IMG/VR virus record: IMGVR_UViG_3300020416_000007
Length of the DNA: 20,000 bases
Strand: one strand, 5' to 3'
Source: an uncultured virus (IMG/VR IMGVR_UViG_3300020416_000007)
Lineage: Duplodnaviria; Heunggongvirae; Uroviricota; Caudoviricetes
Shown here: positions 1 through 15,926 of the stretch, piece by piece
How the letters are laid out: the number at the start of each line of letters is the position of its first letter
How positions within the stretch are numbered: the stretch's first letter is position 1
Translations under genes and position numbers: made by a program
Notes under the pieces: generated by a model
Told to the model about the DNA's origin: nothing
The model's input: the letters and a program-made list of their open reading frames with translations, nothing else
Databases searched by the model: none

Positions 1-4
1 CATT

Positions 5-454
5 TTGATCTTGTCAAATAAATGGGATATAAGATACCTCAGGCTTGCTGAGGAAGTCGGTACTTGGTCCAAAGATCCCTCCTCCCAAATTGGCGCAGTA
101 GCCATAGGATCTAAGGGCCAAGTATTGGCACAAGGATATAATGGATTTCCTCGAGGAATAATGGACAGCACGATGAGGTTAGCTGATCGTGCAGAAAAAT
201 ATAAGTACATAGTTCACGCTGAACAGAACCTTATATACAATGCTACGTTCAATGGTGTTAACTTAGATGGCTCTACGATATATGTTACAGGTTTGCCAAC
301 GTGTTCCGAATGCGCTAAAGGCGTCATTCAAGTTGGAATCAAACGAGTTGTAATGCCTGTTCAAGATGTAAAAGAACAGTGGATTGAATCGTGGTCTCTT
401 ACAAAAAAAATGTTTAAAGAAGCAGGTGTTGAATATGAGTTCGTTAAAATGTAA
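5..454 (+). CDS. cd: dCMP deaminase (start may lie at or just outside the window edge)
   Basis: SKDPS-x-QIGAV, GYNGFPRG, HAEQN and PTCSECAK zinc-deaminase motifs. Confidence 0.93.
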   Translation: MILSNKWDIRYLRLAEEVGTWSKDPSSQIGAVAIGSKGQVLAQGYNGFPRGIMDSTMRLADRAEKYKYIVHAEQNLIYNATFNGVNLDGSTIYVTGLPTCSECAKGVIQVGIKRVVMPVQDVKEQWIESWSLTKKMFKEAGVEYEFVKM

Positions 455-818
455 TACAATTTTTGTAGGCATGAATCCATCTAAAGTTCCAGTAAGCAGG
501 TCTAAAGGATCTGCTTATAAACGTTTTCATGACTGGTTAGATTATTTAGAATTGAAACATGTATCATTCACTAACCTATCGCCTGATCCTGATTGGGATT
601 TTAAATTTAAATCATTTGATCACAATTTATTGTTTACAAGTCTGCAAAATTATGATAGAATAATAGTATGGGGATCATTAGTATCTAATTATCTAAGAAG
701 GTTAGGTTTCACAGAACACTTTGTTTTACCACATCCTTCACCTAGAAATAGAAAACTTAATGATCATAAATACGTACATAATGTGTTAAATGAGTGTAAG
801 GAATATTTAAATGACTAA
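435..818 (+). CDS. Small uracil-DNA glycosylase superfamily protein
   Basis: IFVGMNPS (motif A-like) and LPHPSPRNR (motif B-like). ATG at 435 with AGGTG upstream is preferred over the ORF-track start at 384. Confidence 0.7.
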   Translation: MSSLKCNTIFVGMNPSKVPVSRSKGSAYKRFHDWLDYLELKHVSFTNLSPDPDWDFKFKSFDHNLLFTSLQNYDRIIVWGSLVSNYLRRLGFTEHFVLPHPSPRNRKLNDHKYVHNVLNECKEYLND

Positions 819-2058
819 GATTGCTATCGTACTAGGGAGAGGTACTGAAGGCTGTGGTGTAACGCAATGTGCTATTCAAATGCAAAAGGTTACAGACGCA
901 CATATCTTTACTACAACTGATAAGAAATGGGGTAGAGCTAAAGGACTTGATATCGTACAAAACGAATTCTCAATGGCAAAGGAATGGGAACTCATAGCTG
1001 ATGCTATTAACTTGTCTTTTGATTTGTGTATCATATATTCTATTCCTTCGAAAGGACATCCTCAAGAATGTCAAGATAATTTTATTCCATTCCTTAAACA
1101 CATTAAAACTCGTAAAGCTTTTATTAACGTAGACCATAAAGCTGCTTCTATTGCACGTAACGCAAATCTTAAAGAAGTCTGTGAAAACGTAGATGTTATT
1201 ATGACTCATAGTATGGAGAATGATTTCTGTAAGTTTATAAGAAAAAATAAAATAGAAACTCCACTTACAAAGATGGGGCTAGGCTTTGATTATGATGGAC
1301 ACCGTGAAAAGTATTGGCGTCCTATTGAAGAACAGCAACACAACATGGTAAGATGGATTGGCCGTACTGCTATGTGGAAAGGACCAAGCGTTATGATTGA
1401 CTTCCATCAAGACGCTTTGATGACGTATGGATTCATCACAGTCCTTGAAGGATTAGAAGCTTCTATTCAATATCCTCTAGTCTTATATAGAGATAATAAA
1501 TCAGATAATCCTACAGATCGTAGAATTGTAGAAAATCATTTCAGGCCTGAGAAACATTACAATGATGTAAAGTTTACACCTGATCTGTATGGCAAAGAAG
1601 TTAAAGATAAAGGTGCATATCTTTATCCTCAATATATAAACTCAGAAGCTATGGACCGTTTATCACGATCAGCGTTTGGTTCTGATTTATATTTTTTGAA
1701 AGCAGAACACTATGGCAATAATATAGAAAATTGTCATGCAGAATGTATAGCATCTGGTACAGTTCCACTATTTCACAAACACTTTTGTGATAACGTGATT
1801 CATCCTGTACAAGGTAAACCAATTAGTCAATGTCAAAATTCTGGTACTCTTGGCGTTGATTACACTAACTTTAATGAGTGCCGCGACCAAATGGTCAAAC
1901 TTAAAAATGATCCTGCGATGAGAGATGATTGGAGAGAGATGGCTTTTGAATTTTGGAAACAACACTCCGACGGAGAAATGGTTGTGAAAGAAATAATTGA
2001 TCTCGCTTTGAACACTACTAGCAACCAACCACAAGGACTCGAGGAATTTTTCACATGA
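811..2058 (+). CDS. agt: DNA alpha-glycosyltransferase, T4 alpha-glucosyltransferase (AGT) homolog
   Basis: Collinear matches to T4 AGT as recalled: RGTEGCGVT (RGLEGCGVT), RWIGRTAMWKG (RWIGRTTTWKG), LEGLE, YINSEAMDRLSRSAFG (YINSEMLERMSKSGFG), ASGTVPLF, REMAFEF. Confidence 0.9.
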   Translation: MTKIAIVLGRGTEGCGVTQCAIQMQKVTDAHIFTTTDKKWGRAKGLDIVQNEFSMAKEWELIADAINLSFDLCIIYSIPSKGHPQECQDNFIPFLKHIKTRKAFINVDHKAASIARNANLKEVCENVDVIMTHSMENDFCKFIRKNKIETPLTKMGLGFDYDGHREKYWRPIEEQQHNMVRWIGRTAMWKGPSVMIDFHQDALMTYGFITVLEGLEASIQYPLVLYRDNKSDNPTDRRIVENHFRPEKHYNDVKFTPDLYGKEVKDKGAYLYPQYINSEAMDRLSRSAFGSDLYFLKAEHYGNNIENCHAECIASGTVPLFHKHFCDNVIHPVQGKPISQCQNSGTLGVDYTNFNECRDQMVKLKNDPAMRDDWREMAFEFWKQHSDGEMVVKEIIDLALNTTSNQPQGLEEFFT

Positions 2059-3008
2059 AAATATTAATCACTGGTATAGCCGGAATGATCGGCTTTCATT
2101 CAGCCAAGTACTTTAGGTCACAAGACTTCGAAGTAGTTGGTGTAGATAACTTCAACGACTATTACGATCCAAAACTAAAAGAAGATCGTGCTAGTATATT
2201 AGAGAAAGAATATGGCGTTTCTATATTACGCCATGATATTCAACACTTTACTCATCTACTTGACAATCCAATATTAAAGGATGTAGATGTCGTATTGCAC
2301 TTAGCAGCATATGCTAATCCACGTCATTCGTTTGAGGAACCTCAACATTATATTGACACTAACATTACAGGTACACAGCGTATCATTGAAACATTAGAAC
2401 AACGAAATATTCCTTGTGTCTATGCTTCAAGCTCATGTGTAATGCATGGACAACCACTTCCATGGAATGAGCATGATAGACCAGCTCATCAAAATAATCC
2501 TTATGGCTGGTCAAAGCGTTCGAATGAATGCCAGTTTATGCATTCAAAATTACCACGTAGCGCTGGTTTACGATTCTTTACTGTGTATGGTCCTTATGGT
2601 CGACCAGACATGGCACTATTTAAATTTACAGATAATATCGTAAAACGCAGACCGATAGATTTATACAACTTTGGTGATATGAAACGTGACTTTACATACG
2701 TAGATGATATTGTACAAGGTATTGGTATTGTAGTTGAAAAAGTATTTAATGACGAAGAGCGATATCATGAAATCTATAACATAGGTTATGGTGATCAGGT
2801 CGAGTTAATTGATTTTGTTGAAGAGATTGAAAAGAACTTAGATCGTAAAGCATTGCGAAATTTAGTCCCTAAGCACCCCGCTGACACCCCTGAGACGTGG
2901 TCTGACACCACTAAGTTGCAGGCGTTAGGTTATAAACCCACAACACCTGTGACAGAAGGTATTCGCGAGTTTGTTTCTTGGTACAAATCTTATTATGGAG
3001 TTAACTAA
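2055..3008 (+). CDS. NAD-dependent epimerase, UDP-glucuronate 4-epimerase (CapI/GAE-like)
   Basis: ITGIAGMIG Rossmann motif, DNFNDYYDPKLK, YGWSK catalytic YxxxK, GLRFFTVYGPYGRPDMALFKF and RDFTYVDDIV, typical of the UDP-GlcA epimerase subfamily. ATGA overlap with agt. Confidence 0.88.
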   Translation: MKILITGIAGMIGFHSAKYFRSQDFEVVGVDNFNDYYDPKLKEDRASILEKEYGVSILRHDIQHFTHLLDNPILKDVDVVLHLAAYANPRHSFEEPQHYIDTNITGTQRIIETLEQRNIPCVYASSSCVMHGQPLPWNEHDRPAHQNNPYGWSKRSNECQFMHSKLPRSAGLRFFTVYGPYGRPDMALFKFTDNIVKRRPIDLYNFGDMKRDFTYVDDIVQGIGIVVEKVFNDEERYHEIYNIGYGDQVELIDFVEEIEKNLDRKALRNLVPKHPADTPETWSDTTKLQALGYKPTTPVTEGIREFVSWYKSYYGVN

Positions 3009-3823
3009 TGAAGCTTGGTATTATAGGCCACGGGTTTGTTGGCAAAGCAGTTGATTATGGTTTTCATAGTTGTGATAAGATTATTATTGATCCTCTATAT
3101 GGAAATGATATTGAAGAACTGGAGAATGAGCGTTTAGATGTTACGTTTGTTTGTGTACCTACACCTATGGGTGAAGACGGTTCAATCGATTCTTCTATTG
3201 TAGAAAAGACTGTACGATTTTGTAAAAGAAAAGTTTCAGGCTTGATTGTAGTTAAGTCTACAGTTACACCAGACATTGTAGAAAAATTACAAGGTGGAAT
3301 GGCAGGCGATAGAGTCATTTACAATCCTGAATTTCTCACAGAAAAGAATGCTCAAGAAGATTTTATTAATCCTCAAATGCATATCTTTGGTGGAGTTAAG
3401 GAGAAAACTAGAAAGCTAAGTTGGATATATAAAGAGTATAGTCTTTGTAAACCTTGTCCAGTATATCACATGTCTGGACCAGATGCTAGCTTTGTTAAGT
3501 ACGGAATCAATTGTTTCTTAGCTTCTAAAGTTTTATGGTTTAATCAATTTTACGATGTAGTAAAAGACTTTGGAGGAAACTTTGGTCATGTCATTAATGC
3601 AATTGGAACTGATAGCCGAATCGGCCAATCTCATACTCGTGTTCCTGGCTTTGACGGTAAGCGTGGTTACGGCGGTGCTTGTTTTCCAAAAGATACAACT
3701 GCCTTTGCAAGTTTTGCTCAATCGTTTTCTACACTAGAAAAAGTGATTGAGGAAAATAATAAGTATAGAAAAGACTACGATAAAGATGAACGTGAATTAG
3801 CACAGAATGTAAGTTATGGTTAA
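3008..3823 (+). CDS. ugd: UDP-glucose/GDP-mannose 6-dehydrogenase family, short form lacking the C-terminal domain
   Basis: GHGFVG, FVCVPTP, VKSTV, NPEFL, K-Y-x-x-N and catalytic GYGGACFPKD. Confidence 0.88.
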   Translation: MKLGIIGHGFVGKAVDYGFHSCDKIIIDPLYGNDIEELENERLDVTFVCVPTPMGEDGSIDSSIVEKTVRFCKRKVSGLIVVKSTVTPDIVEKLQGGMAGDRVIYNPEFLTEKNAQEDFINPQMHIFGGVKEKTRKLSWIYKEYSLCKPCPVYHMSGPDASFVKYGINCFLASKVLWFNQFYDVVKDFGGNFGHVINAIGTDSRIGQSHTRVPGFDGKRGYGGACFPKDTTAFASFAQSFSTLEKVIEENNKYRKDYDKDERELAQNVSYG

Positions 3824-5006
3824 GTATGCAAGTATAGTTCCACTCATTGGTGGCGAAACAATAGCAATGGAAAAGGTATTCGGGTCTAGGCCCGAGTACA
3901 TCTTATCGTATAAGGATTTTCAAGCAAATGATAACCAGCTCCTTAATTATTATAATAATAGTATGCCTTATGTTCTTCTCGATGAAGGCGGTACTGCTCC
4001 TGGCAAAGTTGATATTATCAATACTGTCTGTCCTTGTGCAGGTCTCAGTTCACTTAGTCCTACTAGCGCTAGTGATAGCACTACTAATGATTGGATGGTC
4101 AAGTCTGCAGAGTATGTGCTCGAATCCCTCCAACCAACTGTGTTCTGGGGTGAAAACGCTCCACGGCTCGCTAGTAAAATGGGAGAACCAGTTGTTAACA
4201 GATTACGATCCCTTGCAAAAGATAATGGATATGTCTTCTCAATCTACAAAACAAAATCAATCTTACACGGATTGAGTCAAGTAAGAGATCGTGCATTTTA
4301 TTTCTTTTGGAAAGGTAATGAGGTACCTAAGTTCTCATATTATAATAGACCGTATACTAAGATTGAAGATCAGATACGTTCTTCTGCCACTAACACAGAA
4401 GATCCTATGTTTGAACAGGTGAACAATAAAGCTAAGCCTACAGACAATCCTTATTATCAATATGTGTTAGAAGAAATGCATGGTGGAATTACACACCAAG
4501 AATTTTTTAAGAAGATTGAGAAAACAACTAATCCATTGCATTATATTGAAGATCACGGTGGAGACTATCGTGTAGTAAGTAAGTGGATGTCAGATCGTGG
4601 TCACCAAAAGCTTTCAGAGAAATGCATATACATGTATGAAAAGTTAAAGGCTGGTAAAAATATTATGAGAAAAATGACAGAGATAGGTAAAGACCATATT
4701 GGCGCTTTCGTAGGTCATTTCCCTCATAGCCTAGTGCATCCTGATCAAGACAGGTATATCAATACACGTGAAGCTTTAGATATTATGAAGATGCCAAAAG
4801 ACTTTGAATTACAAGGTGGCTTAAAAAATCTTAACATGATTTGTCAAAACGTGCCTGTCACTACAGCTACAGATATGGCAGAAAATGTAAAAGACTTCTT
4901 AGGTGGAACAGCTGATACTATTAAATCAGAATATGTAGTACAGGATAATAAAACTAAAACTATATTCTCTAGAAAAAAACCTGGTACACTTGAAGCATTT
5001 TTTTAG
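3816..5006 (+). CDS. Divergent DNA cytosine-C5 methyltransferase-like protein
   Basis: Ordered C5-MTase motifs: variant motif I (IVPLIGG), IV (CPCAGLS), VI (GENAPRL), VIII (GLSQVRDRAF), IX (RYINTREALDIM), X (ICQNVPV). Confidence 0.8.
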   Translation: MVKYASIVPLIGGETIAMEKVFGSRPEYILSYKDFQANDNQLLNYYNNSMPYVLLDEGGTAPGKVDIINTVCPCAGLSSLSPTSASDSTTNDWMVKSAEYVLESLQPTVFWGENAPRLASKMGEPVVNRLRSLAKDNGYVFSIYKTKSILHGLSQVRDRAFYFFWKGNEVPKFSYYNRPYTKIEDQIRSSATNTEDPMFEQVNNKAKPTDNPYYQYVLEEMHGGITHQEFFKKIEKTTNPLHYIEDHGGDYRVVSKWMSDRGHQKLSEKCIYMYEKLKAGKNIMRKMTEIGKDHIGAFVGHFPHSLVHPDQDRYINTREALDIMKMPKDFELQGGLKNLNMICQNVPVTTATDMAENVKDFLGGTADTIKSEYVVQDNKTKTIFSRKKPGTLEAFF

Positions 5007-5059: not shown

Positions 5060-6118
5060 ATGAGTATTATGGATAAACTCAAAAAGAATAGTAAGTTAAA
5101 ACATACTGAAGTTCTTTCTGAGTCTAAATTTTTTAACGAAAAAGATATGGTAAAGACACAAGTGCCTATGGTCAATGTAGCTTTATCTGGTTCCGTGGAT
5201 GGCGGACTTACACCTGGACTTACAGTTTTAGCAGGTCCATCCAAACATTTTAAAACTTCATTTGCATTGCTTATGGCTGCAGCATATATGGAAAAATATC
5301 CTGAAGCTGTCATGCTATTTTATGATTCAGAGTTTGGTTCACCGCAAGCATACTTCAATCAATTTGAAATTGATACTTCTCGTGTATTGCATACACCTAT
5401 TACAAATGTAGAAGAATTAAAATTTGATTTGATTGGACAATTGGAAGAACTTGATCGCGATGATAAAGTTATTGTAGTTATTGATTCAATCGGTAACTTA
5501 GCATCTAAGAAAGAAATGGAAGATGCTCTTAACGAAAAGTCTGTTGCTGACATGTCACGCGCTAAAGCACTTAAAGGTTTGTTCCGTATGTCGACACCTT
5601 ACTTAGCTATGAAAAATATTCCATTGCTTGCTGTCAATCATACATATAAAGAAATTGGATTGTTTCCAAGAGATATCGTTGGTGGTGGTACTGGTATCTA
5701 CTATTCAGCAGATGCAATCTGGATTCTTGGTCGTAGACAAAACAAAAAAGGCACTGAGGTTACTGGTTATGATTTTGTAATTAATATTGAAAAATCTAGG
5801 TTTGTAAAAGAAAAATCTAAAATACCAATTACAGTTAATTGGGAAGGTGGTGTTGCACAATACTCAGGTTTACTTGATGTAGCACTAGCTGGTGGATATG
5901 TACATAAACCAAGTAACGGATGGTATGAACCGCTACATCCTGTAACCGGTGAAGTGTTAGGTCGTAAAGTAAGACAAGGAGAAACTGAAGGTGCTTTCTT
6001 CTGGCTTGACATATTTGAAAAGACAGACTTCAAAGAATTTATTAAAAAGCAATTTACCATTGGTTATAAATCAGAAGTATCAATGGATAGGATTGTAGAT
6101 GAAACACCAGGAGAATAA
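5060..6118 (+). CDS. uvsX: UvsX RecA-like recombinase
   Basis: NVALSG, AGPSKHFKT Walker A, FYDSEFG, IDSIGNLASKKE, GGGTGIYYSAD, IEKSRFVKEKSKIP. AGGAG at 5049-5053 favours ATG 5060. Confidence 0.96.
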   Translation: MSIMDKLKKNSKLKHTEVLSESKFFNEKDMVKTQVPMVNVALSGSVDGGLTPGLTVLAGPSKHFKTSFALLMAAAYMEKYPEAVMLFYDSEFGSPQAYFNQFEIDTSRVLHTPITNVEELKFDLIGQLEELDRDDKVIVVIDSIGNLASKKEMEDALNEKSVADMSRAKALKGLFRMSTPYLAMKNIPLLAVNHTYKEIGLFPRDIVGGGTGIYYSADAIWILGRRQNKKGTEVTGYDFVINIEKSRFVKEKSKIPITVNWEGGVAQYSGLLDVALAGGYVHKPSNGWYEPLHPVTGEVLGRKVRQGETEGAFFWLDIFEKTDFKEFIKKQFTIGYKSEVSMDRIVDETPGE

Positions 6119-6434
6119 AACATACGAGTTGATTCCTGATGATGGAGGCGAGTCTTGGCATGTTAGAATTAAAGAAGGCATGTTTTCTGAAGCAGTAATT
6201 CAGTTTGGAGCTATAAAGATTGGTAAACAGTTAGATGACGGTGATCATCAAATTACATTTGATTTTGATCTTATTAGTTCTCCAGATGAAGACTTAAGTG
6301 TTGATGATGAAGAATTACAAACGACTGCTGGAGATATCTTACATGATATTATGGTGCAATCCTTAGAAAAAGATGATGGATCTATGGCAGTCAAAGATGC
6401 AGATAAACCTGATGCTAATTGGGAGATGTTATGA
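6099..6434 (+). CDS. Small acidic protein, probable gp40-like (head vertex assembly chaperone) by position
   Basis: 111-aa acidic ORF immediately after uvsX and before gp41, where T4 gene 40 sits. Function inferred from synteny only. Confidence 0.5.
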   Translation: MKHQENKTYELIPDDGGESWHVRIKEGMFSEAVIQFGAIKIGKQLDDGDHQITFDFDLISSPDEDLSVDDEELQTTAGDILHDIMVQSLEKDDGSMAVKDADKPDANWEML

Positions 6435-6850
6435 AAATACTAATAATGGGTTTGCCGGGATCTGGTAAAACTCATCTAGCTAAAAGATTACACGTGCATT
6501 TAAACTGCGCGTGGTATAACGCAGATAAAGTAAGAGAAATGGCTAATGATTGGGACTTTACTCCATCAGGCCGTAGACGTCAAAGCGAACGTATGAATTC
6601 AATTGCTACGTTTGAAGCGACAAGAGCTCGTACTGTTATCTGCGATTTTGTTTGTCCTACAGGAGAAACACGTAAACAATTCGATGCTGACATTACAATA
6701 TGGATGGACACTATACAAGCTGGTAGATATGATGATACAAATCAAATATTCGAAGAACCAACTGATATGGATTTCAGACTTGCATCTTTTATGTCAGATC
6801 CTGATATTGTTAGCTTTGCAAATTTATTAAAGGAAAAATATAATGTTTAA
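6431..6850 (+). CDS. Adenylylsulfate kinase-like P-loop kinase
   Basis: ILIMGLPGSGKT P-loop, NADKVR, DFT-x-x-GR-x-RQ, DFVCP, FEEP as in APS kinase family. ATGA overlap at 6431. Confidence 0.8.
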   Translation: MKILIMGLPGSGKTHLAKRLHVHLNCAWYNADKVREMANDWDFTPSGRRRQSERMNSIATFEATRARTVICDFVCPTGETRKQFDADITIWMDTIQAGRYDDTNQIFEEPTDMDFRLASFMSDPDIVSFANLLKEKYNV

Positions 6851-7283
6851 TCCAGTAACCAAGCGCCGCTTGTTTAATACAATGGAACCTACAGTTCAAA
6901 TGCTTGGTAGGTGGCAACCGTGGCATCCTGGCCACACAGAATTATTTAAAAAAGCACATGCAATGACTGGTCAAGTTTGCATTCAAATCAGGACTGTACC
7001 GCAAAATCGTGAAGCTAATTCACGAGTACCTGGTCAAGATGATAACCCATGGATAGTTGAAGATGTAAAGCAAAATATTATTAATCATTTATCAGAAGAG
7101 GGGTTTACAGAAGGGTTTGAATATGTTATAATGGTAGTACCAAACATTGTAGACATAGCATATGGACGCGGTGTTGGCTACACATTTACAGAGCACGATC
7201 TTGGTGAACAGATACACGCAATCTCAGCAACTAAAATACGTGCAGATTTAAGAAAGGCTGGCAAGCTTGCAGACAAATCTTGA
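6843..7283 (+). CDS. Cytidylyltransferase-like (HIGH-motif) nucleotidyltransferase
   Basis: LGRWQPWHPGH (HxGH) and ISATKIR motifs. Confidence 0.8.
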   Translation: MFNPVTKRRLFNTMEPTVQMLGRWQPWHPGHTELFKKAHAMTGQVCIQIRTVPQNREANSRVPGQDDNPWIVEDVKQNIINHLSEEGFTEGFEYVIMVVPNIVDIAYGRGVGYTFTEHDLGEQIHAISATKIRADLRKAGKLADKS

Positions 7284-8643
7284 ACTAACAATTTTAAGAA
7301 ACATCTTAACAGATGAAAAGTATATGCGTAAGGTTCTACCTTTCGTAAAACCAGATTATTTTGAGGGTATATACAGAATACTCTTTAAAGAAGCTGGTAA
7401 GTTTGTTGGAAAATATAATAAGCTTCCTACAATAGAAACTTTTAAAATTGAGTTAGATCAGTCTGATAGAATTGGTGGAGAAAATTATACAGTTGCTGTA
7501 GATTTATTACCACAATTATTTTCTAGTGAAAAGATAGATGAGGAATGGTTACTTAATAATACAGAAAAATGGTGCCAAGATAGAGCGATATATAATGCTG
7601 TCATGGAATCGATATCGATTATTGACGGTAAACATGAATCACTAACTAAAGGTGCTTTACCTGAATTATTACAAAAAGCATTAGGTGTAGCTTTCGATAC
7701 TAACGTCGGTCACGATTACATACAGAATGTAGAAGAAAGATGGGATTTCTATAATAAACAAGAAGAAAGGATACCATTTGACATCGAATATTTTAATAAA
7801 ATCACTAAAGGCGGTGTTCCAAATAAAACTCTTAACATTGCTCTTGCCGGCACTGGTGTTGGTAAGTCTCTTTTCATGTGCCACGTTGCCTCTTCTGCCT
7901 TAGTTGACGGTAAAAATGTTTTATATATTACTATGGAAATGGCAGAAGAACGTATAGCAGAACGTATCGATGCAAACTTATTGAATGTACCAATTGATCA
8001 ATTAGAAACAATGCCAAAGACTATGTTTACTGAAAAAGTAAAACAGCTGTCAACTAAAACTACTGGTCAATTAATCATTAAGGAATACCCTACCGGTTCT
8101 GCACATGCTGGTCATTTTCGTGCATTATTAAATGAATTAAAATTAAAGCGACAATTTGAACCAGATATTATTTTTATTGATTACTTAAATATTTGTGCAT
8201 CATCACGAATGAAAGGCATGGGAGGATCGATCAATTCATACAATTACATTAAAGCAATTGCTGAGGAATTACGTGGCCTTGCAGTGGAGTTCGACCTACC
8301 GATCTTCTCTGCAACACAAACGACTCGTTCTGGTTATAGTAACTCGGATGTTGGGCTTGAAGACACGAGCGAGTCTTTTGGATTACCCGCTACCGCTGAC
8401 CTCATGTTTGCACTCATTTCAACAGAAGAACTCCAACAGCTAGGCCAAATGATGGTCAAACAATTAAAGAATAGATATAATGATCCAACACAAAATAAAA
8501 GATTTGTTATCGGTGTAGATCGAAGCAAGATGAAATTATTTGATGTTGATCCAAATGAGCAAACGCTGACAGACGATACACCAGTGTATGATAAGACACC
8601 TGCTGGTGAAGGCATGGCAAAATTTAAGGATTGGAATATATGA
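7267..8643 (+). CDS. gp41: T4 gp41-like replicative DNA helicase
   Basis: AGTGVGKS Walker A, YITMEMAEERIAERIDAN, IKEYPTG, IDYLNI, IAEELRGLAVE, SATQTTRSG, KQLKNRYND. TTG start. Confidence 0.96.
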   Translation: MQTNLELTILRNILTDEKYMRKVLPFVKPDYFEGIYRILFKEAGKFVGKYNKLPTIETFKIELDQSDRIGGENYTVAVDLLPQLFSSEKIDEEWLLNNTEKWCQDRAIYNAVMESISIIDGKHESLTKGALPELLQKALGVAFDTNVGHDYIQNVEERWDFYNKQEERIPFDIEYFNKITKGGVPNKTLNIALAGTGVGKSLFMCHVASSALVDGKNVLYITMEMAEERIAERIDANLLNVPIDQLETMPKTMFTEKVKQLSTKTTGQLIIKEYPTGSAHAGHFRALLNELKLKRQFEPDIIFIDYLNICASSRMKGMGGSINSYNYIKAIAEELRGLAVEFDLPIFSATQTTRSGYSNSDVGLEDTSESFGLPATADLMFALISTEELQQLGQMMVKQLKNRYNDPTQNKRFVIGVDRSKMKLFDVDPNEQTLTDDTPVYDKTPAGEGMAKFKDWNI

Positions 8644-9389
8644 ATGATTTGATTTTTACTAACTGTGAAGACTTCTTAGAAAGTCAAAAAGTTCTTGAAC
8701 GCTTATACGTATTTGATGTTGATGGAACACTAACTGCTAGCCGGCAGAAGATGGATCCAGATTTTAAAGAGTTCTTTATAGAGTTTTGTAAGAACAACGC
8801 TGTTTATCTAATCACAGGTTCTGATAGAGTAAAGACTTTAGAGCAAGTTGGAATTGACGTATATTATTTTGCTGATAGAGTATATAATTGTTCTGGCAAT
8901 CATGTCTTTGAACAAGACAGAGAGATATATAGAACAGATTGGAGATTACCTGATCCAGCTGCATTCTTCTTATTAGATAAATTAGCGGACAGTGGATTCT
9001 ATAGAAAAACAGGACATCATATAGATGAAAGACCAGGCATGGTAAACTTTAGTATTGTTGGACGCAAATGTAATTTTGAAGAACGTGTAATGTATCGTGA
9101 ATGGGATGAACATAAGAATGAAAGAAGAATAATTGCCGAAGAGTTTAACTCTAAATTTCCTGACATTGAAGCTTTAGTTGCAGGTGAAACTGGTTTAGAT
9201 ATTTTTCCACGTGGTCTTAATAAAGGACAAGTGATTGATGATTTAAAAGGTTATGATGTACATTTCTTTGGTGATAAAATGGATGAAGGTGGTAATGATT
9301 ATCCACTAGCAGTGTTAAATACAAAAGGTACAAACTATCATGTGGATTGTTGGAAACATACTTGGAAATTATTAAAAGGAATGCAATGA
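8640..9389 (+). CDS. HAD-IIB phosphomannomutase (eukaryotic-type PMM-like)
   Basis: FDVDGTLT, ITGSD, ER-x-GMVNFS-x-x-GR, FFGDKMDEGGNDYPL. ATGA overlap with helicase stop. Confidence 0.85.
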   Translation: MNDLIFTNCEDFLESQKVLERLYVFDVDGTLTASRQKMDPDFKEFFIEFCKNNAVYLITGSDRVKTLEQVGIDVYYFADRVYNCSGNHVFEQDREIYRTDWRLPDPAAFFLLDKLADSGFYRKTGHHIDERPGMVNFSIVGRKCNFEERVMYREWDEHKNERRIIAEEFNSKFPDIEALVAGETGLDIFPRGLNKGQVIDDLKGYDVHFFGDKMDEGGNDYPLAVLNTKGTNYHVDCWKHTWKLLKGMQ

Positions 9390-11417: not shown

Positions 11418-11773
11418 AAGCTAATACTAAACAGGAAAGGTACTACACAGGTATGCTACGTATGATGAGAGAAGCAGACGCTGCTGAAGCTGCTGAAAAG
11501 AATATTGACTATAAGTTCAATGAAGGTGATCTTATAAAAGAGTTTAAAAAGTATATTGATTCGACTTATACTTCTCACTATTCAAAAGATAAATTTCAAG
11601 CTACTGAGTTTATCATGGACGGTGGCCATGGCACAGGCTTTTGCATTGGTAACGTTATGAAGTACGCTCAACGTTATGGTAAAAAAGGTACGCGCACTGA
11701 CGCTAGAAAAGATTTAATGAAAGTATTGCACTATGCATTAATGCAATTATATGTGCATGATCAAGAGTTATGA
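11405..11773 (+). CDS. DUF3310-like conserved phage protein
   Basis: SHYS...QATEFI...GFCIGNVMKYAQRYGKKG...DLMK-x-x-HY pattern. Confidence 0.75.
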   Translation: MGKIKANTKQERYYTGMLRMMREADAAEAAEKNIDYKFNEGDLIKEFKKYIDSTYTSHYSKDKFQATEFIMDGGHGTGFCIGNVMKYAQRYGKKGTRTDARKDLMKVLHYALMQLYVHDQEL

Positions 11774-12090
11774 TAGAATTAGCCTTAGGCATTTCATTAC
11801 ATCTAGGATTGGAGGATCAATATAATTGGTTACATCCACATGTTAGATATACTAATTGGAATGACTATATGGTTGGTGCTTACTATAACTCAGAGAGTGC
11901 AGTAAGCACGTATTTTGGTTATAGGTGGGAACTTGAAGATTGGGGATTAGAAGCTGCAATAGTAACTGGATATTCGTATAATGAGATTATACCATACGCT
12001 AGAGTTACATACGACAATTGGTATATTGCACCAGCTTTAGAAGATGATGCTAGTGGAATTGTTTTTGGATACGAGTTTAAACTAAACTAA
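11770..12090 (+). CDS. Small aromatic-rich beta-barrel protein, PagP-like
   Basis: Alternating aromatic/Gly strands, S-x-H, YN-x-x-HP, GAYYNS, S-x-Y-x-G, TGY, C-terminal YEF. Confidence 0.55.
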   Translation: MIELALGISLHLGLEDQYNWLHPHVRYTNWNDYMVGAYYNSESAVSTYFGYRWELEDWGLEAAIVTGYSYNEIIPYARVTYDNWYIAPALEDDASGIVFGYEFKLN

Positions 12091-12749
12091 TCCGATAGTG
12101 GATTGTCTAATGCCTCTTGTAAACGTTCAAAGATTTCTTTATCTAATGCTTTCATATCACTTCTAATATCTTTGTCAGTTTGACGAACACCTGATTCAAC
12201 TTCTCTTATAGATTGTGTAACATCTTTCTGTAATTGATTCATTTCGTTTCTTATACCTTCAAGCGTGTTACCAATACTATTTTGTGTTGTTTTAATTCTT
12301 GCTTCAGAGTCTTCCATATTAGTGCTGATCTTATCGCGTAGATCTGCCATTGTGTCTTGATTATCTTTTAACGTTAATCTAAATCTCTCTTCAAAAGTAT
12401 CTAATTTAGCATACACATCATTACGTAAAGATCGTACAGTCTTTTCTGCTCTCTGTATTTGTTCTTCTAAAAGAACGAATTGTCCTTCAATCCTCGAAAC
12501 ATCATTAGCTAAATCTTGTCTAATCTCTTGCGTATACGTAATTGCATCTTCTAGTTTCTGTAATTGCAATTCGTTTGCTGCAGCTATTTCATCGACATCT
12601 ACATTCTGCACAATCTCTTTCATATCCATATAATCTTTGTAGAATTCGAAGCCACCCCATGCTGCGCCACCAAGAGTTGATAGTGCAGTAAGTATAGCAA
12701 ACATCTTGCCACCTCTAAAGGTCATACCTCCAAATTCGAATTCAGCCAT
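12087..12749 (-). CDS. Membrane-anchored long coiled-coil protein
   Basis: N-terminal hydrophobic segment (MFAILTALSTLGGAAWGGF), then a long heptad-like helical region. Confidence 0.8.
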   Translation of the reverse strand: MAEFEFGGMTFRGGKMFAILTALSTLGGAAWGGFEFYKDYMDMKEIVQNVDVDEIAAANELQLQKLEDAITYTQEIRQDLANDVSRIEGQFVLLEEQIQRAEKTVRSLRNDVYAKLDTFEERFRLTLKDNQDTMADLRDKISTNMEDSEARIKTTQNSIGNTLEGIRNEMNQLQKDVTQSIREVESGVRQTDKDIRSDMKALDKEIFERLQEALDNPLSD

Positions 12750-13072
12750 TAGCAGTGTCCTTCTCTATGATACTTTCTATTTTTTCCCCAGCATTTATGT
12801 AATGGCGCTACTACATTATTAGGTAAAGCACGTCCAGGATATCGATAGTATGGATGCTTCCTAAGGTGTTCTCTAAGTTCAGCTAGCTTTTCAGCTCTCT
12901 TTATGCTACGCATTTCAGCAGCGCATGCTGCAACTTTATTCCAACTAAATGTATCAAAGTTTTGTTGTTCGTAGCCATGCAGCTTTAAACAATTCTTTGA
13001 ATCTTCGTTACTCGCTTTCACAGGATGACATGTTGCCATCACTAATAATATTGCATATATGTATTTCATCAT
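12749..13072 (-). CDS. Hypothetical secreted protein, Cys-containing
   Basis: Signal-peptide-like N-terminus (MMKYIYAILLVMATCHPVKA), translationally coupled on both sides. Confidence 0.7.
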   Translation of the reverse strand: MMKYIYAILLVMATCHPVKASNEDSKNCLKLHGYEQQNFDTFSWNKVAACAAEMRSIKRAEKLAELREHLRKHPYYRYPGRALPNNVVAPLHKCWGKNRKYHREGHC

Positions 13073-13218
13073 TCACAAACCTCATATTTACATGGATTTA
13101 ATATTCGATCCCATGTAGGACCTACATTACTCCAGTATTTTTCACTTTCTCCAAAATATGGCCACACGCCCCAATATAAAAAGAATGCAGCTATAACACC
13201 AATGATTAGTTGTTTCAT
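13069..13218 (-). CDS. Small membrane protein (49 aa, MKQLIIGVIAAFFLYWGVWPY...)
   Basis: Read manually. Fills the gap exactly, with TAATG and ATGA overlaps, one TM helix. Confidence 0.7.
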   Translation of the reverse strand: MKQLIIGVIAAFFLYWGVWPYFGESEKYWSNVGPTWDRILNPCKYEVCE

Positions 13219-13625
13219 TACTCGAATGCCAATTCCTTTAACTGTTTTAATTCTTGTTCAAGCTTTTGAACTTCTAGTACTTTCTTTCTTAATTCAAGTT
13301 CGTATAATCTATTACAATCAATTCTACTCTTTGCTCTATTACCAAGTGGTATCATAATTCTTGCATAAACACCGATATCACCTGTTTGCGTATCGTTAAA
13401 ATGATTATTCATAGTATCATAACGACCTTTATCAATTATGCCAGTTACACCGAATTCCAAGTTGGTAGCTGAACCAATTGCATTCATGCAATCTAATTCA
13501 CCAGCTCTAAACTTATCAGATTGATAACTACCTGGAGCACCAGGCAGTGATAAGTTTAATGAACTCGATTCTGCTAATGCTGTTGTCGTTACCAGCATCA
13601 GGCATAAAGTTATAATATGTTTCAT
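13218..13625 (-). CDS. Secreted hypothetical protein with Cys-bracketed amphipathic beta-strands and a C-terminal coiled coil
   Basis: Signal peptide ending ALA, LDC...TNLEFGVTG...DIGVYARIMIPLG...IDCNRLYELE, C-terminal heptads. Confidence 0.75.
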   Translation of the reverse strand: MKHIITLCLMLVTTTALAESSSLNLSLPGAPGSYQSDKFRAGELDCMNAIGSATNLEFGVTGIIDKGRYDTMNNHFNDTQTGDIGVYARIMIPLGNRAKSRIDCNRLYELELRKKVLEVQKLEQELKQLKELAFE

Positions 13626-13628
13626 TCA

Positions 13629-14012
13629 TCATCTCGCTATCTTCGAACAGATTTGTGATTTTACACCTGTCGAAATTACATCCTGTTTTAATTGTTTAGA
13701 AGTAGTACAAATCCATTCTATTCGCTTTGCATCTTTCTCTCTAAAATATACATCCATTTGCTTGTGCTGTAAATATGATATCTGAAAAATACGATCAACT
13801 GCTGCGAATGGTACTTTATTCCATTCTTTATCATAAACATTTATTTCGTAATATTCAACATCATTTCTTCTATTCCACATCTTCATGGTTGTAACTAATA
13901 TATTATCTACGTAAGAAGGTTTTAACTCTGCATACGTAGGCGTCAATTCGTGAGCAATAGCGCTACTCGTAAATAACGCTATTGCTATAGTTTTTATTAT
14001 TGTGCCAAACAT
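13629..14012 (-). CDS. Secreted Ig-like protein resembling a fimbrial chaperone N-domain
   Basis: Signal peptide ending AIA, LTPTY, M-W-N-x6-YEINVYD beta pattern reminiscent of PapD_N, C-terminal Cys pair. Confidence 0.5.
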   Translation of the reverse strand: MFGTIIKTIAIALFTSSAIAHELTPTYAELKPSYVDNILVTTMKMWNRRNDVEYYEINVYDKEWNKVPFAAVDRIFQISYLQHKQMDVYFREKDAKRIEWICTTSKQLKQDVISTGVKSQICSKIAR

Positions 14013-14494
14013 ACTGCTGTAATATTCGCTTTGTATTCACCACCAGGTAGCGGTTCATCGACACCATACGTTACTTCTGATTCAACTTCGAACCATACGG
14101 TTCCGGCAACTGTTAAATCATATTCAGTATGATTATCGTATTCCACTTTGGCTGCTTCATAACCTGACATATTTGTGTCAGATGTTGATGAAACAGTAAC
14201 CTCGCCATCCCACGCGACTGAGTCTGTGAGAGATGGACTAGTAGTAAATGCATTTGGCCATGATATTTTTGCTGTGTAATAATCAGCGATAGTCACGTCG
14301 TACCGGATGATTGGTTTTACGCCGCCATCAGCTGGCTTTGTACTTAATTCATCTGGATTTGGGTTTCCATACACACCTGCAACGTCAGTATAAATTGAGC
14401 ATTTCGAAGATACGTTCCCGGATATTTGCGAGTCCGTAGCATATGCTGCAGTTCCCATTAATATGACACCCAATGTTAAGATAGATCGTAGCAT
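13997..14494 (-). CDS. Secreted beta-sandwich protein resembling a Csu/spore-coat-U type fimbrial subunit
   Basis: Signal peptide ending AYA, N-terminal ISGNVSSKCSI, C-terminal LPGGEYKANITAVC (pilin G-x-Y terminal strand), Ser/Thr-rich, AGGAG RBS. Confidence 0.6.
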   Translation of the reverse strand: MLRSILTLGVILMGTAAYATDSQISGNVSSKCSIYTDVAGVYGNPNPDELSTKPADGGVKPIIRYDVTIADYYTAKISWPNAFTTSPSLTDSVAWDGEVTVSSTSDTNMSGYEAAKVEYDNHTEYDLTVAGTVWFEVESEVTYGVDEPLPGGEYKANITAVCLAQ

Positions 14495-14503
14495 GCTTTC
14501 TCC

Positions 14504-15454
14504 TTATTCTCTATCATATTGCGAGCGTACCATTTTTCTGTGGTTTTTATCAGAAGATAAATTTCTCAATGCTCTTCGGTTGTCTTTTATAATATTGTCT
14601 TTTAATACTAAAGTGTCGGCATATTGTCCACCTGGAATCGTAACTGAGTAATAGGGTTCTATCTTTGGCACCTGAGCCAATGCAGCGAGAATAGTTTGCT
14701 GTTGGCTTGTATCTACCATTTCTTCTATGGAGTTTTCTCCACCCAGTGTTACCTCAAGGCGTTCTTCTTCTTCAGTTTCTTCTTCCAACGTCAATTCTTC
14801 TTCGACTTCTTCTTGTCTCTTGTCGTCGGATTCAGCAGCAAGTGCTGCTTGTACCCATTCATCATAGAATGGATCATTAATGTCTGGTTCAACATCCATG
14901 TTTTGAAGATACTCAGCTAATGCTTCAGCGTATCCTCTGCATGTTGGATCAGCCAGTGGCGTATTTGCACACTTCATTAATTGCTCGTTGACTTCCATCT
15001 TGTAGTTATATGTGACTGTGGCATTACTAATAGTGCCGTCACCTTCAACTGCTATTTCACCATCACCCCATTGATCGGCATAGGTATATGGAAATCTAAA
15101 ATATTTCTGAATGGTTCCACCAGGAAAGCCTGACCAGTTGTCAGTGTGTTCGAAAATGTAACCATCGTTAACTGCATGTTCATTTCGAATATGCACTTTT
15201 GAATCTGTAGTAGGATCTTTTGTTATTGTGTATCGATAAGCTAAACCATTAACTTCTAACTCAATATAATTAGGAGTGGAGTCAGGCAATACTGTACCCA
15301 TGCTCCATGAAAGCCCGTTATTCGCCGCGTTATTAGTTACTCCGTAAGTTATATCAGAGTAGCAATAAGAGGAGGAGGCCGCCAACAAACCCACCGCCCA
15401 AAACTGTGGACTTATCTTCTTCGGTAAGGTTTTGTATAAAGTTTTTGTCGTCAC
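14504..15454 (-). CDS. Hypothetical secreted protein with beta-rich N-domain and acidic linker
   Basis: 316-aa ORF with signal-like N-terminus (GTG start uncertain), C-x7-C motif (CANTPLADPTC region), Glu-rich tract. Confidence 0.72.
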   Translation of the reverse strand: MTTKTLYKTLPKKISPQFWAVGLLAASSSYCYSDITYGVTNNAANNGLSWSMGTVLPDSTPNYIELEVNGLAYRYTITKDPTTDSKVHIRNEHAVNDGYIFEHTDNWSGFPGGTIQKYFRFPYTYADQWGDGEIAVEGDGTISNATVTYNYKMEVNEQLMKCANTPLADPTCRGYAEALAEYLQNMDVEPDINDPFYDEWVQAALAAESDDKRQEEVEEELTLEEETEEEERLEVTLGGENSIEEMVDTSQQQTILAALAQVPKIEPYYSVTIPGGQYADTLVLKDNIIKDNRRALRNLSSDKNHRKMVRSQYDRE

Positions 15455-15926
15455 CTGTATCTGGTTCCTTATCTTGATTTGCTAACCATGCAGCTTTCGC
15501 TTGATCACCTATCATACCATCAAATGGACAGGGTGTACCTGCGTCCATCATGGCCTGAAAAACACGTTCATCTTGACACATAACTGAAACTGCTGCCACT
15601 TTCATACCCATATCATATAATGTTTTAGCATTCTTTAGTTTTTCACAATTCATATCTCTAACTGTTTTACCACCAGAGATACCAAGTATTTGAGTTTGAA
15701 CAGCACCACTAACACCAACAGTACATAAATCTGAATTGGCTGAGTTTATTGACGGGGCTATTGCAGATGGAGGTGGTGATTCGACTTTGGTATTCGAATT
15801 TGAATTTGATGTGACATCGCTTGTAGTTGTATTCTCAGTTTTAATAACGTCATCGACAGCTTCCTGGCTGCTGGCTATATTAGTAACAAAAATCAATGCT
15901 ACTAGCATTACTAGTTTCTTTAACAT
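15354..15926 (-). CDS. Secreted Cys-rich hypothetical phage protein with hydrophobic C-terminal tail
   Basis: Signal peptide, Thr/Ser/Asn linker, PPPSAIAP, DLC...NCEKLK...MCQD...GTPCP, tail GGGFVGGLLLLLLL. GGAG RBS. Confidence 0.8.
   Translation of the reverse strand: MLKKLVMLVALIFVTNIASSQEAVDDVIKTENTTTSDVTSNSNSNTKVESPPPSAIAPSINSANSDLCTVGVSGAVQTQILGISGGKTVRDMNCEKLKNAKTLYDMGMKVAAVSVMCQDERVFQAMMDAGTPCPFDGMIGDQAKAAWLANQDKEPDTGDDKNFIQNLTEEDKSTVLGGGFVGGLLLLLLL

Follow-up and report, generated by a model that had tools for sequence, protein, structure and literature searches.

A gene run of a marine T4-like phage predicted to place a hexuronic acid on hydroxymethylcytosine in its DNA

In the 20,000-nt stretch of viral DNA analysed here (the window), a gene for a DNA glycosyltransferase (GT) of the T4 alpha-glucosyltransferase (AGT) family adjoins genes for enzymes predicted to make an acidic sugar donor, and the phage DNA may therefore carry galacturonic acid in place of glucose. 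Judged from the encoded proteins, the best reading, which we hold with moderate confidence, is that the module would produce galacturonosyl-hydroxymethylcytosine (galacturonosyl-hmC) and would constitute a DNA hypermodification set of a marine T4-like myovirus. The source is an abundant uncultured marine T4-like phage of a cosmopolitan lineage, and near-identical DNA was found in 20 sequencing runs from 7 studies.

The initial annotation had described a run of an AGT homologue, an epimerase and a UDP-glucose 6-dehydrogenase (Ugd)-like gene at positions 811–3823, embedded among nucleotide and replication genes. The open reading frames and their overlapping stop and start codons upheld this run (Table 1): as read from the sequence, AGT and the epimerase overlap by ATGA at 2055–2058, the epimerase and the short Ugd-like dehydrogenase (mini-Ugd) overlap by TAATG at 3006–3010, and the two flanking genes overlap the run by 8 nt each, at 811–818 and 3816–3823. 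Profile searches confirmed the setting as well, with a dCMP deaminase gene 5′ of AGT and genes for a C5-cytosine methyltransferase-like (C5-MTase-like) enzyme, UvsX, a gp41-type helicase and ThyX 3′ of mini-Ugd. In the complete relative G003, a glycan island of two GT25 genes, a second epimerase and FkbM lies elsewhere in the genome. Purifying selection was found on all four genes compared (dN/dS 0.05–0.19, 23 comparisons). The small UDG-like gene, listed as an open reading frame from TTG 384 and overlapping both the deaminase and AGT genes, probably starts at ATG 435; its product matched PF03167 weakly (E 0.002, below cut-off), as did the orthologues in L005 and L109, and in Atlas clusters of 120–123 aa viral proteins, where the sequence is present from residue 18, PF03167 is assigned to 24–33% of members.

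Table 1. Coordinates of the predicted genes in and around the glycosyltransferase run, as positions in the window.
Feature	Position	Strand	Remarks
dCMP deaminase (cd)	2..454	+	5′ end cut by window edge; PF00383 E 4.5e-18
Small UDG-superfamily-like protein, role unassigned	435..818	+	PF03167 weak
T4 alpha-glucosyltransferase (AGT) family DNA glycosyltransferase	811..2058	+	415 aa; PF11440
UDP-glucuronate 4-epimerase-type NAD-dependent SDR	2055..3008	+	317 aa; PF01370
Mini-Ugd (nucleotide-sugar 6-dehydrogenase core)	3008..3823	+	271 aa; PF03721 + PF00984
C5-cytosine DNA methyltransferase-like enzyme	3816..5006	+	PF00145 E 1.1e-15

The glycosyltransferase is a full-length homologue of T4 AGT, aligning over residues 3–398 with 3–398 of the structure 1xv5 (E 6e-42), and it matched both Pfam PF11440 (E 1.9e-30; 106.6 bits, cut-off 25; residues 36–367 on profile positions 27–353 of 355) and the PHROG alpha-glucosyltransferase (1.5e-67). 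By tblastn, 656 phage records were matched, all at <60% identity and at about 32% among the matches listed, and megablast of the whole cassette against phage records gave no match. At least 145 related contigs bear this AGT, whose dN/dS against six relatives was 0.065–0.091. T4 AGT itself takes UDP-glucose as its donor; from its gene context, the donor of the enzyme studied here is probably not host UDP-glucose.

No hydroxymethylase is encoded in the 20,000-nt window, as had been noted at the outset, and the suggested search upstream for a gp42-like enzyme located one directly upstream in L002, a contig from this phage that overlaps the window (identical at 899 of the 900 nt compared). Its 228-aa product matched T4 dCMP hydroxymethylase 1b49 (E 2.8e-70) and keeps the Cys and Asp at the sites that are mutated in deposited T4 variants (C to S, D to N). 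The gene lies 0.8 kb upstream of AGT, and a gp42-type gene was found 1–3 kb upstream of AGT in 5/5 larger related records. The same contig contains the full cd frame (L002:7004–7519), which overlaps the end of the gp42-type gene and whose product matched the phrog_174 dCMP deaminase (1.6e-40), as well as an upstream gene for a MazG-like NTP pyrophosphatase. An hmC acceptor base is thus supported by the predicted functions of these genes. A search for PF12851 (TET/JBP) in five records gave no match, with the controls silent too. The nearest record to the window (G001) is an 8.6-kb fragment with a 132-base overlap with the query. In the gp42-bearing type represented by L109, ugd and epimerase genes are present with no recognizable GT; as a lead, a 341-aa protein of L109 belongs to Atlas clusters in which HMUDK_hel is assigned to 10–36% of members.

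For the second gene of the run, the proposed UDP-glucuronate (UDP-GlcA) 4-epimerase type was borne out by its solved relatives and by the carboxylate-binding residues that it keeps. The protein matched PF01370 (2.5e-40), and its best distinct solved relatives were 5u4q (8.4e-67), 6zl6 (8e-42) and MoeE5 6kv9 (5.7e-27), the latter two of which we take to be UDP-GlcA 4-epimerases, a view backed for 6zl6 by an Arg at chain position 185. An N-terminal NAD-binding glycine motif (TGIAGMIG) and the catalytic Y150/K154 are present, and S126, S127, C128, T176 and R183 stand where the B. cereus enzyme (BcUGAepi, 6zl6) has Thr126/Ser127/Ser128, Thr178 and Arg185; the BcUGAepi position numbers 126–128 and 178 are presumed, and they match counting along the 6zl6 chain. 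Equivalents of BcUGAepi S127, Y149, K153, T178 and R185 are kept in 89/89 epimerase relatives. In BcUGAepi the carboxylate is contacted by a Thr/Ser network and Arg185, loss of which is described as converting the enzyme into a decarboxylase (PMC12338863). Because all of these relatives retain the Arg185 equivalent, the identity of this SDR as a UDP-xylose synthase was rejected. No NCBIfam equivalog cut-off was passed by the epimerase, the best matches lying far below theirs (heptose_epim, 111 against a cut-off of 275; galE, 106 against 262; TviC, 82 against 760), and no UGAepi model was seen among its NCBIfam matches. Its dN/dS against relatives was 0.12–0.16.

The Ugd identity given to the third gene stood in part: the NAD site, the catalytic Cys and the fold are those of Ugd, but the C-terminal UDP-binding domain (PF03720) is absent and the NCBIfam cut-off was missed (TIGR03026, 128.9 bits, below 189.8). 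The N-terminal PF03721 (5.7e-15) and central PF00984 (2e-15) domains were matched, whereas PF03720 was absent from mini-Ugd and all 61 orthologues (267–292 aa), and a separate gene for this domain was found in 0/4 whole records, the complete genome G003 among them. Since the 61 orthologues are equally short and dN/dS is low (0.056–0.19 against relatives), mini-Ugd appears to be a real short form, and a truncation artefact was rejected. Owing to the absence of PF03720, we describe the protein as working like Ugd and do not class it as Ugd. GHGFVG, GGACFPKD (containing the catalytic Cys), NPEFLTE, K164 and N168 were invariant in 33/33 aligned sequences, and the top Foldseek matches of its AF2 model (pLDDT 94) were all UDP-glucose dehydrogenases (TMq 0.74–0.82). 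The tail carries conserved basic and aromatic residues (R254, Y257 and R262), which could stand in for nucleotide binding. A missing UDP-binding domain combined with invariant sugar-oxidizing residues would also fit a scheme in which AGT puts glucose on hmC and mini-Ugd then oxidizes C6 of the DNA-bound glucose. We regard this as very improbable, as mini-Ugd is common in phages that have neither a GT nor hmC genes in its vicinity, the epimerase with which it is paired is a nucleotide-sugar enzyme of full length, and the conserved tail could take over nucleotide binding. That a Ugd without this domain is widespread in marine T4-like phages, whether hmC genes are present or absent, is an enzymological question in itself.

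The expected co-occurrence of agt, epimerase and ugd across relatives held for the first two genes and only partly for the third. Related marine loci counted as testable when they extended ≥1000 nt beyond AGT, and among these the epimerase directly followed AGT in 72/72, with a gap of ≤15 nt in 68 of them. This pair is intact in three gene orders, one with AGT-epimerase before uvsX, one with it after thyX (L025, L006, L010), and one with ugd relocated upstream of gp42 (L040, L077); in L006, ugd is located beside uvsX, and AGT-epimerase-MT about 9 kb away. A quick tree placed 62/65 AGT-linked epimerases in one group (SH-aLRT 99). In contrast, when loci were selected by mini-Ugd alone, 29 of the 43 testable ones lacked gp42, AGT and MT-like genes in the neighbourhood; ugd stood by itself in 15 of the 29 and was accompanied by the epimerase gene in 14. 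The epimerase/mini-Ugd pair is therefore not exclusive to DNA glycosylation. Furthermore, epimerases unlinked to AGT had the same active-site residues in 24/24 cases, and the pair is therefore useful without AGT.

Such loci argue for the main rival explanation, which we consider possible though doubtful: AGT would add glucose from host UDP-glucose as in T4, the unrelated epimerase and mini-Ugd would shift the nucleotide-sugar pool of the infected cell for envelope, capsule or virion glycans, and their adjacency to AGT would merely reflect a shared location in the plastic DNA polymerase–uvsX interval. Wherever uvsX was found in the 29 loci, it lay within a few kb downstream of mini-Ugd. The closest complete phage record (C48C1) carries the epimerase and Ugd-like genes before uvsX, yet neither AGT nor a gp42 homologue; mini-Ugd relatives occur on at least 592 viral contigs, and further sugar genes are found in relatives (KDO-8-P synthase, cupin and RfaE-like nucleotidyltransferase genes upstream, besides the GT25 island of G003). 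Published accounts read pelagimyophage Ugd genes as LPS-related auxiliary genes (PMC7029224) and describe the pol-uvsX region of T4-like phages as plastic (PMC6024577). However, AGT and the epimerase, whose codons mostly overlap, move jointly away from uvsX in the thyX-linked order, and epimerase and ugd in the window have an hmC-linked gene on either side, AGT before them and the MT-like gene after. In L160-type phages, moreover, TAGT (PF20691, E 1.3e-15), a second and unrelated DNA GT family, fills the AGT position by the MT-like gene, a short SDR and ugd. This explanation would also mean that, of all the enzymes in a translationally coupled run, the GT alone makes no use of what its neighbours produce.

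For the galacturonosyl-hmC reading, it is the epimerase, and not ugd, with which AGT is constantly paired, and this points to the epimerized product as the donor. In reconstituted phage 5hmC pathways, epimerase-paired GTs are reported to have strictly needed that epimerase, except in contig 91, and the epimerase and GT of contig 57 yielded a hexuronic-acid-cytosine of 433 amu (10.1101/2023.12.21.572611). When the contig 91 GT acted alone, the HexA-cytosine formed differed in retention time from the contig 57 product (10.1101/2023.12.21.572611), which favours a uronic acid or mixed glycan other than simple GalA-hmC; here UDP-GlcA might be the donor with the epimerase balancing the pool, several donors might be used, or a second transferase might build a disaccharide and leave a mixture in the DNA. 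Several phage GTs are likewise described as processive or multi-donor (10.1101/2023.12.21.572611; PMC8256090) and the UDP-GlcA 4-epimerase reaction as reversible (PMC12338863). We rate this outcome as unlikely, given that neither the window nor L002 showed a second GT in the gp42–uvsX interval and that the AGT-epimerase pairing speaks for an epimerized donor.

By homology, the first two steps towards galacturonosyl-hmC would be T4-like: the MazG-like pyrophosphatase, the gp42-type hydroxymethylase and dCMP deaminase would replace dC by hmdC at the nucleotide level, and the AGT-family enzyme would glycosylate hmC in DNA after replication. The sugar, we infer, would be a hexuronic acid, of which galacturonic acid is the most probable, with mini-Ugd oxidizing UDP-glucose to UDP-glucuronate, the epimerase converting UDP-glucuronate to UDP-galacturonate, and AGT, translationally coupled to the epimerase, taking UDP-galacturonate as its donor. 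The resulting hmC derivative would be acidic and negatively charged, and would likely escape nucleases recognizing C, hmC or glucosyl-hmC. Hexuronic-acid-5hmC is not new chemistry, as other phage GT and epimerase pairs have made it in E. coli (10.1101/2023.12.21.572611). If true, the present reading would place acidic sugars on every cytosine of a cosmopolitan marine phage lineage, provide a natural pre-replicative counterpart of a product so far reached only by reconstitution, and supply a new substrate on which evasion of type IV restriction and CRISPR could be tested. Enzymes stalling on such DNA may also bias marine viromes.

The C5-MTase-like gene, found ≤2 kb after the epimerase in 51/51 testable loci, represents a divergent subfamily that occurs in this dataset only alongside gp42-type genes. 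PCAGLS, ENAP, QxRxR, RxxxxxE and QNVP were invariant in 12/12 and 14/14 sequences, and these we take to be the catalytic motifs IV (PC), VI (ENV), VIII (QxRxR), IX and X, respectively. Motif I, in which FxGxG is expected, is an invariant PLIGG with Leu in place of the first Gly. The fold matched C5-MTases and the solved C5-carboxymethyltransferase 8yf3, an enzyme showing that non-methyl groups can be transferred by this fold. A two-layer and hitherto undescribed cytosine chemistry, quite unlikely in our estimate, would combine galacturonosyl-hmC, made by way of a self-contained donor pathway that begins with the minimal Ugd, with a non-methyl group, or an action on hmC or its glycoside, contributed by the C5-MTase-like enzyme. 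The former enzyme would then be a new two-domain Ugd, able to bind its nucleotide sugar although the classical UDP-binding domain is absent, and the latter, keeping the covalent-catalysis residues with motif I altered, would perform something other than simple cytosine methylation.

The glucosyl-hmC genes of T4 are those for gp42 dCMP hydroxymethylase, gp56 dCTPase, cd, and the alpha- and beta-glucosyltransferases. The present set resembles them in its gp42 homologue, cd, MazG-like NTP pyrophosphatase and full-length AGT homologue, and differs in an AGT about 32% identical, in the epimerase, mini-Ugd and C5-MTase-like genes of the same run, and in that no beta-GT was seen. The module also lies between DNA polymerase and uvsX, described as the site of gene 42 and beta-gt in T4 (PMC6024577). 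Compared with bacterial Ugd and UDP-glucuronate 4-epimerase (B. cereus UGAepi, 6zl6), the same two-step chemistry is predicted and the catalytic residues are kept, whereas the phage dehydrogenase lacks the C-terminal UDP-binding domain and has a shortened Rossmann insert.

Uronic acid in virion DNA is documented for Bacillus phage SP-15, in which a phage UDP-glucose dehydrogenase, a phosphomannomutase and a dCMP deaminase are described (PMC5977210). Its modified base is 5-dihydroxypentyluracil, a thymine replacement bearing phosphoglucuronate and glucose, so that the uronate is joined by a phosphodiester, unlike the glycosidic bond to hmC predicted here, and its Ugd is said to resemble teichuronic-acid genes of bacteria (PMC5977210). 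RB69/Mosigvirus phages are also T4-like and have donor-making sugar genes by a DNA transferase in the polymerase-uvsX interval, but with a pentose (arabinosylated cytosine), a 5-hydroxy-dC acceptor, and other transferase and sugar-enzyme families (PMC6024577; PMC13390438). A DNA GT paired with an NAD-dependent epimerase is shared with the "subclass II" phage 5hmC pathways (Pyle et al., 10.1101/2023.12.21.572611; Burke et al., PMC8256090). Their product class, HexA-5hmC (433 amu), has been shown experimentally, whereas ours is predicted from genes, and their 5hmC is described as made post-replicatively by a C5-MT and TET, in place of the gp42-type enzyme found here (10.1101/2023.12.21.572611). 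Compared by description, the contig 57 GT is GT-A-like, whereas the present GT belongs to the T4 AGT family and is accompanied by the phage's own Ugd-like enzyme.

In the six-frame ORF listing, the genes of interest stand in a row on the plus strand with overlapping stops and starts (see table), and the C5-cytosine methyltransferase-like (MT-like) gene is followed, in order, by uvsX, two small kinase/nucleotidyltransferase ORFs, a gp41-type helicase, a phosphomannomutase-like HAD protein and ThyX. The overlaps named in the initial annotation, ATGA at 2055-2058 and TAATG at 3006-3010, were borne out, and 8-nt overlaps were found in addition at 811-818 and 3816-3823.

Features of the window and their coordinates
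Feature	Coordinates	Strand	Remarks
dCMP deaminase (cd)	2-454	+	gene cut by the window start
Small UDG-superfamily-like protein	384/435-818	+	ORF listed from 384; overlaps cd and AGT
T4-type DNA alpha-glucosyltransferase homologue (AGT)	811-2058	+	415 aa
Epimerase	2055-3008	+	
Ugd-like dehydrogenase (mini-Ugd, ugd)	3008-3823	+	271 aa
C5-MTase-like gene	3816-5006	+	
Kinase/nucleotidyltransferase ORF pair	6419-6850, 6843-7283		overlapping; one matches the N-terminal and the other the C-terminal half of phrog_10255, a PHROG 'kinase' family
Phosphomannomutase-like HAD protein, eukaryotic type	8631-9389		between helicase and ThyX; PF03332, E 2.5e-24
Small PagP-like protein	11770-12090		
Seven ORFs	12087-15926	-	between plus-strand blocks
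Gene run	16305-19998		fatty-acid desaturase-like, unknown, SAM methyltransferase, two unknowns, TauD-family dioxygenase (last cut by window end)

The AGT matched the Pfam AGT family with E 1.9e-30 and gave an end-to-end alignment to the T4 alpha-glucosyltransferase structure (E 6e-42); its 656 matches in phage records all fell below 60% identity, with T4-like phages of enterobacteria, among the matches listed, at ~32%. A search of viral contigs with AGT as query gave 147 candidate stretches, of which 145 were confirmed. From the best 80 loci, linkage was counted at the 72 with at least 1000 nt past AGT, and the 8 shorter ones were dropped. The initial annotation had proposed examining agt-epimerase-ugd co-occurrence across phages, and in this set (best 80 of 145) the epimerase was the next gene after AGT at all 72 loci, with a gap of ≤15 nt at 68 and of 48 to 765 nt at 4. 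Among the same best 80, ugd directly followed the epimerase in 56/65 testable loci (11 with ORFs overlapping by a few bases), was placed beside uvsX (L006), upstream of the T4 dCMP hydroxymethylase-type gene gp42 (L040, L077) or beyond the locus in the remaining 9, and the MT-like gene lay within 2 kb downstream in 51/51 testable loci. The block stayed together in three gene orders among these loci: before uvsX (the window and the related contigs L003 and L005), after thyX (L025, which has ugd there, and L006 and L010, which lack it there), and with ugd shifted in front of gp42 (L040 and L077, the latter being the complete relative G003).

A quick ML tree was built from 89 epimerases, leaving out matches of <40% identity or <90% coverage, identical copies and matches with stops. 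In it, 62 of the 65 AGT-linked epimerases formed one group (SH-aLRT 99), and the linkage label changed 3 times, compared with 21.3 in shuffles. The other three (L111, L130, L135) were placed among unlinked epimerases, and their AGT-like neighbours are only 30-33% identical to the window AGT. Compared with L005, the cassette is a mosaic (AGT 94%, ugd 93%, epimerase 75% and MT-like gene 72% identity), which points to putative allele exchange inside a fixed gene order. DNA nearly identical to 811-5006 (at least half of the sampled words) was present in 20 public runs from 7 studies of marine/aquatic metagenomes dated 2014-2023, with 12 of these runs flagged as possible sources.

The source of the hydroxymethyl acceptor, which the initial annotation could not see, was found in L002, an overlapping contig of the same phage that is identical to the window at 899/900 compared bases and extends 7 kb farther upstream. 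Its upstream genes are, in order, a family B DNA polymerase, KDO-8-phosphate synthase, a cupin, a MazG-like pyrophosphatase, several unknowns, DUF1599, an RfaE-domain-II-like nucleotidyltransferase and a 228-aa protein matching T4 dCMP hydroxymethylase with E 2.8e-70. In alignments, this hydroxymethylase retains Cys and Asp at two positions altered in deposited T4 variants, which we take to be the nucleophile and the cytosine-selecting residue. Since a gp42-type gene was likewise found 1-3 kb upstream of AGT in 5/5 larger related records, the predicted acceptor is 5-hydroxymethylcytosine (hmC) produced in the T4 way. The genes lying between polymerase and gp42 (L002:1501-3108 and 5677-6419) include the KDO-8-phosphate synthase, which passes the NCBIfam cut-off, the MazG-like protein as a candidate dCTPase, the DUF1599 protein, labelled 'nucleotide modification associated', and the RfaE-like protein, alternatively glycerol-3-P cytidylyltransferase-like.

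The best solved relatives of the epimerase are 5u4q (8.4e-67), 6zl6 (8e-42) and MoeE5 (5.7e-27), the last two of which are presumably UDP-glucuronate 4-epimerases. By counting, an Arg occupies position 185 of the 6zl6 chain, and the available text of PMC12338863 describes Arg185 of the B. cereus enzyme as contacting the UDP-GalA carboxylate. At the matching places the window epimerase has Ser, Ser and Cys (126-128), Tyr150, Lys154, Thr176 and Arg183, and Ser127, Tyr, Lys, Thr and Arg are retained in 89/89 related phage epimerases; none of the NCBIfam curated models matched above cut-off. The enzyme is thus read as a putative UDP-GlcA/UDP-GalA 4-epimerase. An alternative reading as a UDP-xylose synthase was rejected because the carboxylate-holding Arg is kept and because, in the same portion of that source, mutagenesis disturbing carboxylate stabilisation turns the B. 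cereus epimerase into a decarboxylase (PMC12338863).

The Ugd label of the initial annotation held in part. The dehydrogenase carries the NAD motif GHGFVG, the beta-2 Asp, KST, NPEFLTE and GGACFPKD including the catalytic Cys, and the top Foldseek matches of its AF2 model (pLDDT 94) were all UDP-glucose dehydrogenases (TM-score 0.74-0.82 by query, 0.46-0.58 by target); the UDP-binding C-terminal domain PF03720 is absent, the protein ending ~45 residues past the catalytic Cys. PF03720 was encoded elsewhere in 0/4 records (complete G003 and three others), with controls positive in 13/14 genomes. Accidental truncation was rejected, since 61 orthologues are equally short (267-292 aa); the catalytic motifs and tail residues R254, Y257 and R262 were invariant in an alignment of 33 of the 61, and dN/dS was 0.056-0.19. 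Judged by motifs and model, the mini-Ugd probably works like Ugd, though without a defining family feature.

The MT-like gene belongs to a divergent C5-cytosine methyltransferase subfamily (Pfam E 1.1e-15), in which PC, ENA, QxRxR and QNVP are invariant and motif I reads PLIGG, and its model (pLDDT 78) matched the folds of C5-MTases and, at Foldseek rank 2, of the C5-carboxymethyltransferase 8yf3. Within the loci examined (best 80 each of the AGT and mini-Ugd searches), it occurred only alongside gp42-type genes. Pseudoalteromonas phage XG4 and the five cyanophage records of the S-TIM5 group have homologues of 32% identity. An AGT-family gene is also present in S-TIM5, and the annotated thymidylate synthase of this phage (L087:4766-5602) has Asp, in the motif PLD of the BLAST alignment, where thymidylate synthases, as we assume, have Asn; because of this Asp, the AGT-family gene and the MT-like gene, S-TIM5 cytosine may be modified.

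A profile search with the mini-Ugd alone confirmed at least 592 of 600 stretches; the best 80 were kept, a sample of the most similar loci and not a random one, and 43 were testable, having 3 kb or more of sequence upstream and 1.5 kb or more downstream of ugd or the ugd/epimerase pair. Among these 43 (best 80 of at least 592), 15 had ugd only, 14 the epimerase and ugd without gp42, AGT or the MT-like gene, 5 the full set, 4 gp42 and the MT-like gene with a short SDR, 3 gp42 only, and 1 each the epimerase with gp42 and the epimerase with gp42 and the MT-like gene, so that hmC genes were absent nearby in 29/43. In C48C1, the complete phage record closest to the window (gp41 67% identical), the polymerase is followed by a different methyltransferase, the primase, the epimerase, a Ugd-like gene of 319 aa and uvsX, and searches of this record for AGT and for a gp42 homologue found neither. 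Given C48C1 and the unlinked epimerases, whose active-site residues are the same, the pair is predicted to have a use needing no AGT. Phage Ugd in pelagimyophages is interpreted, in the accessible part of PMC7029224, as an LPS-related auxiliary gene. In G003 (121/191 ORFs scanned) a separate glycan island at ~57.5-64.2 kb contains two GT25 genes, an FkbM methyltransferase and another epimerase, in agreement with the initial remark that the cassette does not belong to a surface-glycan island.

Other transferases are found in the same company. Related contigs of the L160 type (L160:5149-8846) have gp42 and cd, then a TET-associated glycosyltransferase (PF20691, E 1.3e-15), and after it the MT-like gene, an SDR of 243 aa, mini-Ugd and uvsX, an order in which an unrelated DNA glycosyltransferase family occupies the AGT position. 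At that position L109 (L109:5760-9757) has two family-less proteins of 327 and 341 aa, adjoined by mini-Ugd; the 341-aa protein is near Atlas clusters with a 5-hmdU DNA kinase domain in 10-36% of members, a likeness we treat as a lead only.

Several neighbouring genes of the window were also characterized. The UDG-superfamily-like protein matched PF03167 weakly (E ~0.002, in three orthologues), and its Atlas clusters are viral, of 120-123 aa. Of the phrog_10255 pair, one is a P-loop kinase and the other a nucleotidyltransferase with weak NMN-adenylyltransferase matches, and the two may serve NAD salvage; a frameshift was rejected, since relatives share the two-ORF layout. The phosphomannomutase-like gene, present in some relatives only and at different positions there, could supply hexose-1-phosphate for nucleotide sugars. 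Family matches were almost nil in the minus-strand block (one coiled-coil-like), where GC skew flips, and G003 has a run similar to the desaturase/dioxygenase block.

Taken together, homology and gene order give good support to hmC substitution and to its predicted glycosylation by the AGT homologue. We regard it as an even chance that the sugar would be galacturonic (or glucuronic) acid: the constant pairing of AGT with the epimerase, an active site of the UGAepi type and experimental precedent argue for it, and the occurrence of the sugar pair on its own and the atypical dehydrogenase weaken it.

Among known systems, as far as the available portions of the sources describe them, SP-15 carries phosphoglucuronate on dihydroxypentyluracil and has a phage Ugd gene (PMC5977210), and RB69/Mosigvirus have arabinosylated cytosine with donor genes between polymerase and uvsX (PMC6024577, PMC13390438). 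Burke et al. describe 5hmC with Glc and GlcNAc and speculate that accompanying epimerases supply donors, and uronic acid is not mentioned in the accessible text (PMC8256090). The decisive prior art, judged from the available part of the preprint, is Pyle et al. (10.1101/2023.12.21.572611), where epimerase-paired glycosyltransferases required that epimerase, with one exception, and hexuronic-acid-modified cytosine (433 amu) was obtained in E. coli with the contig 57 epimerase plus glycosyltransferase and with the contig 91 glycosyltransferase alone; GT57 is GT-A-like, and the pathways use C5-MT plus TET. The module described here is predicted to be a T4-type, pre-replicative, GT-B version of this known hexuronic-acid-5hmC kind, with its own donor pathway.
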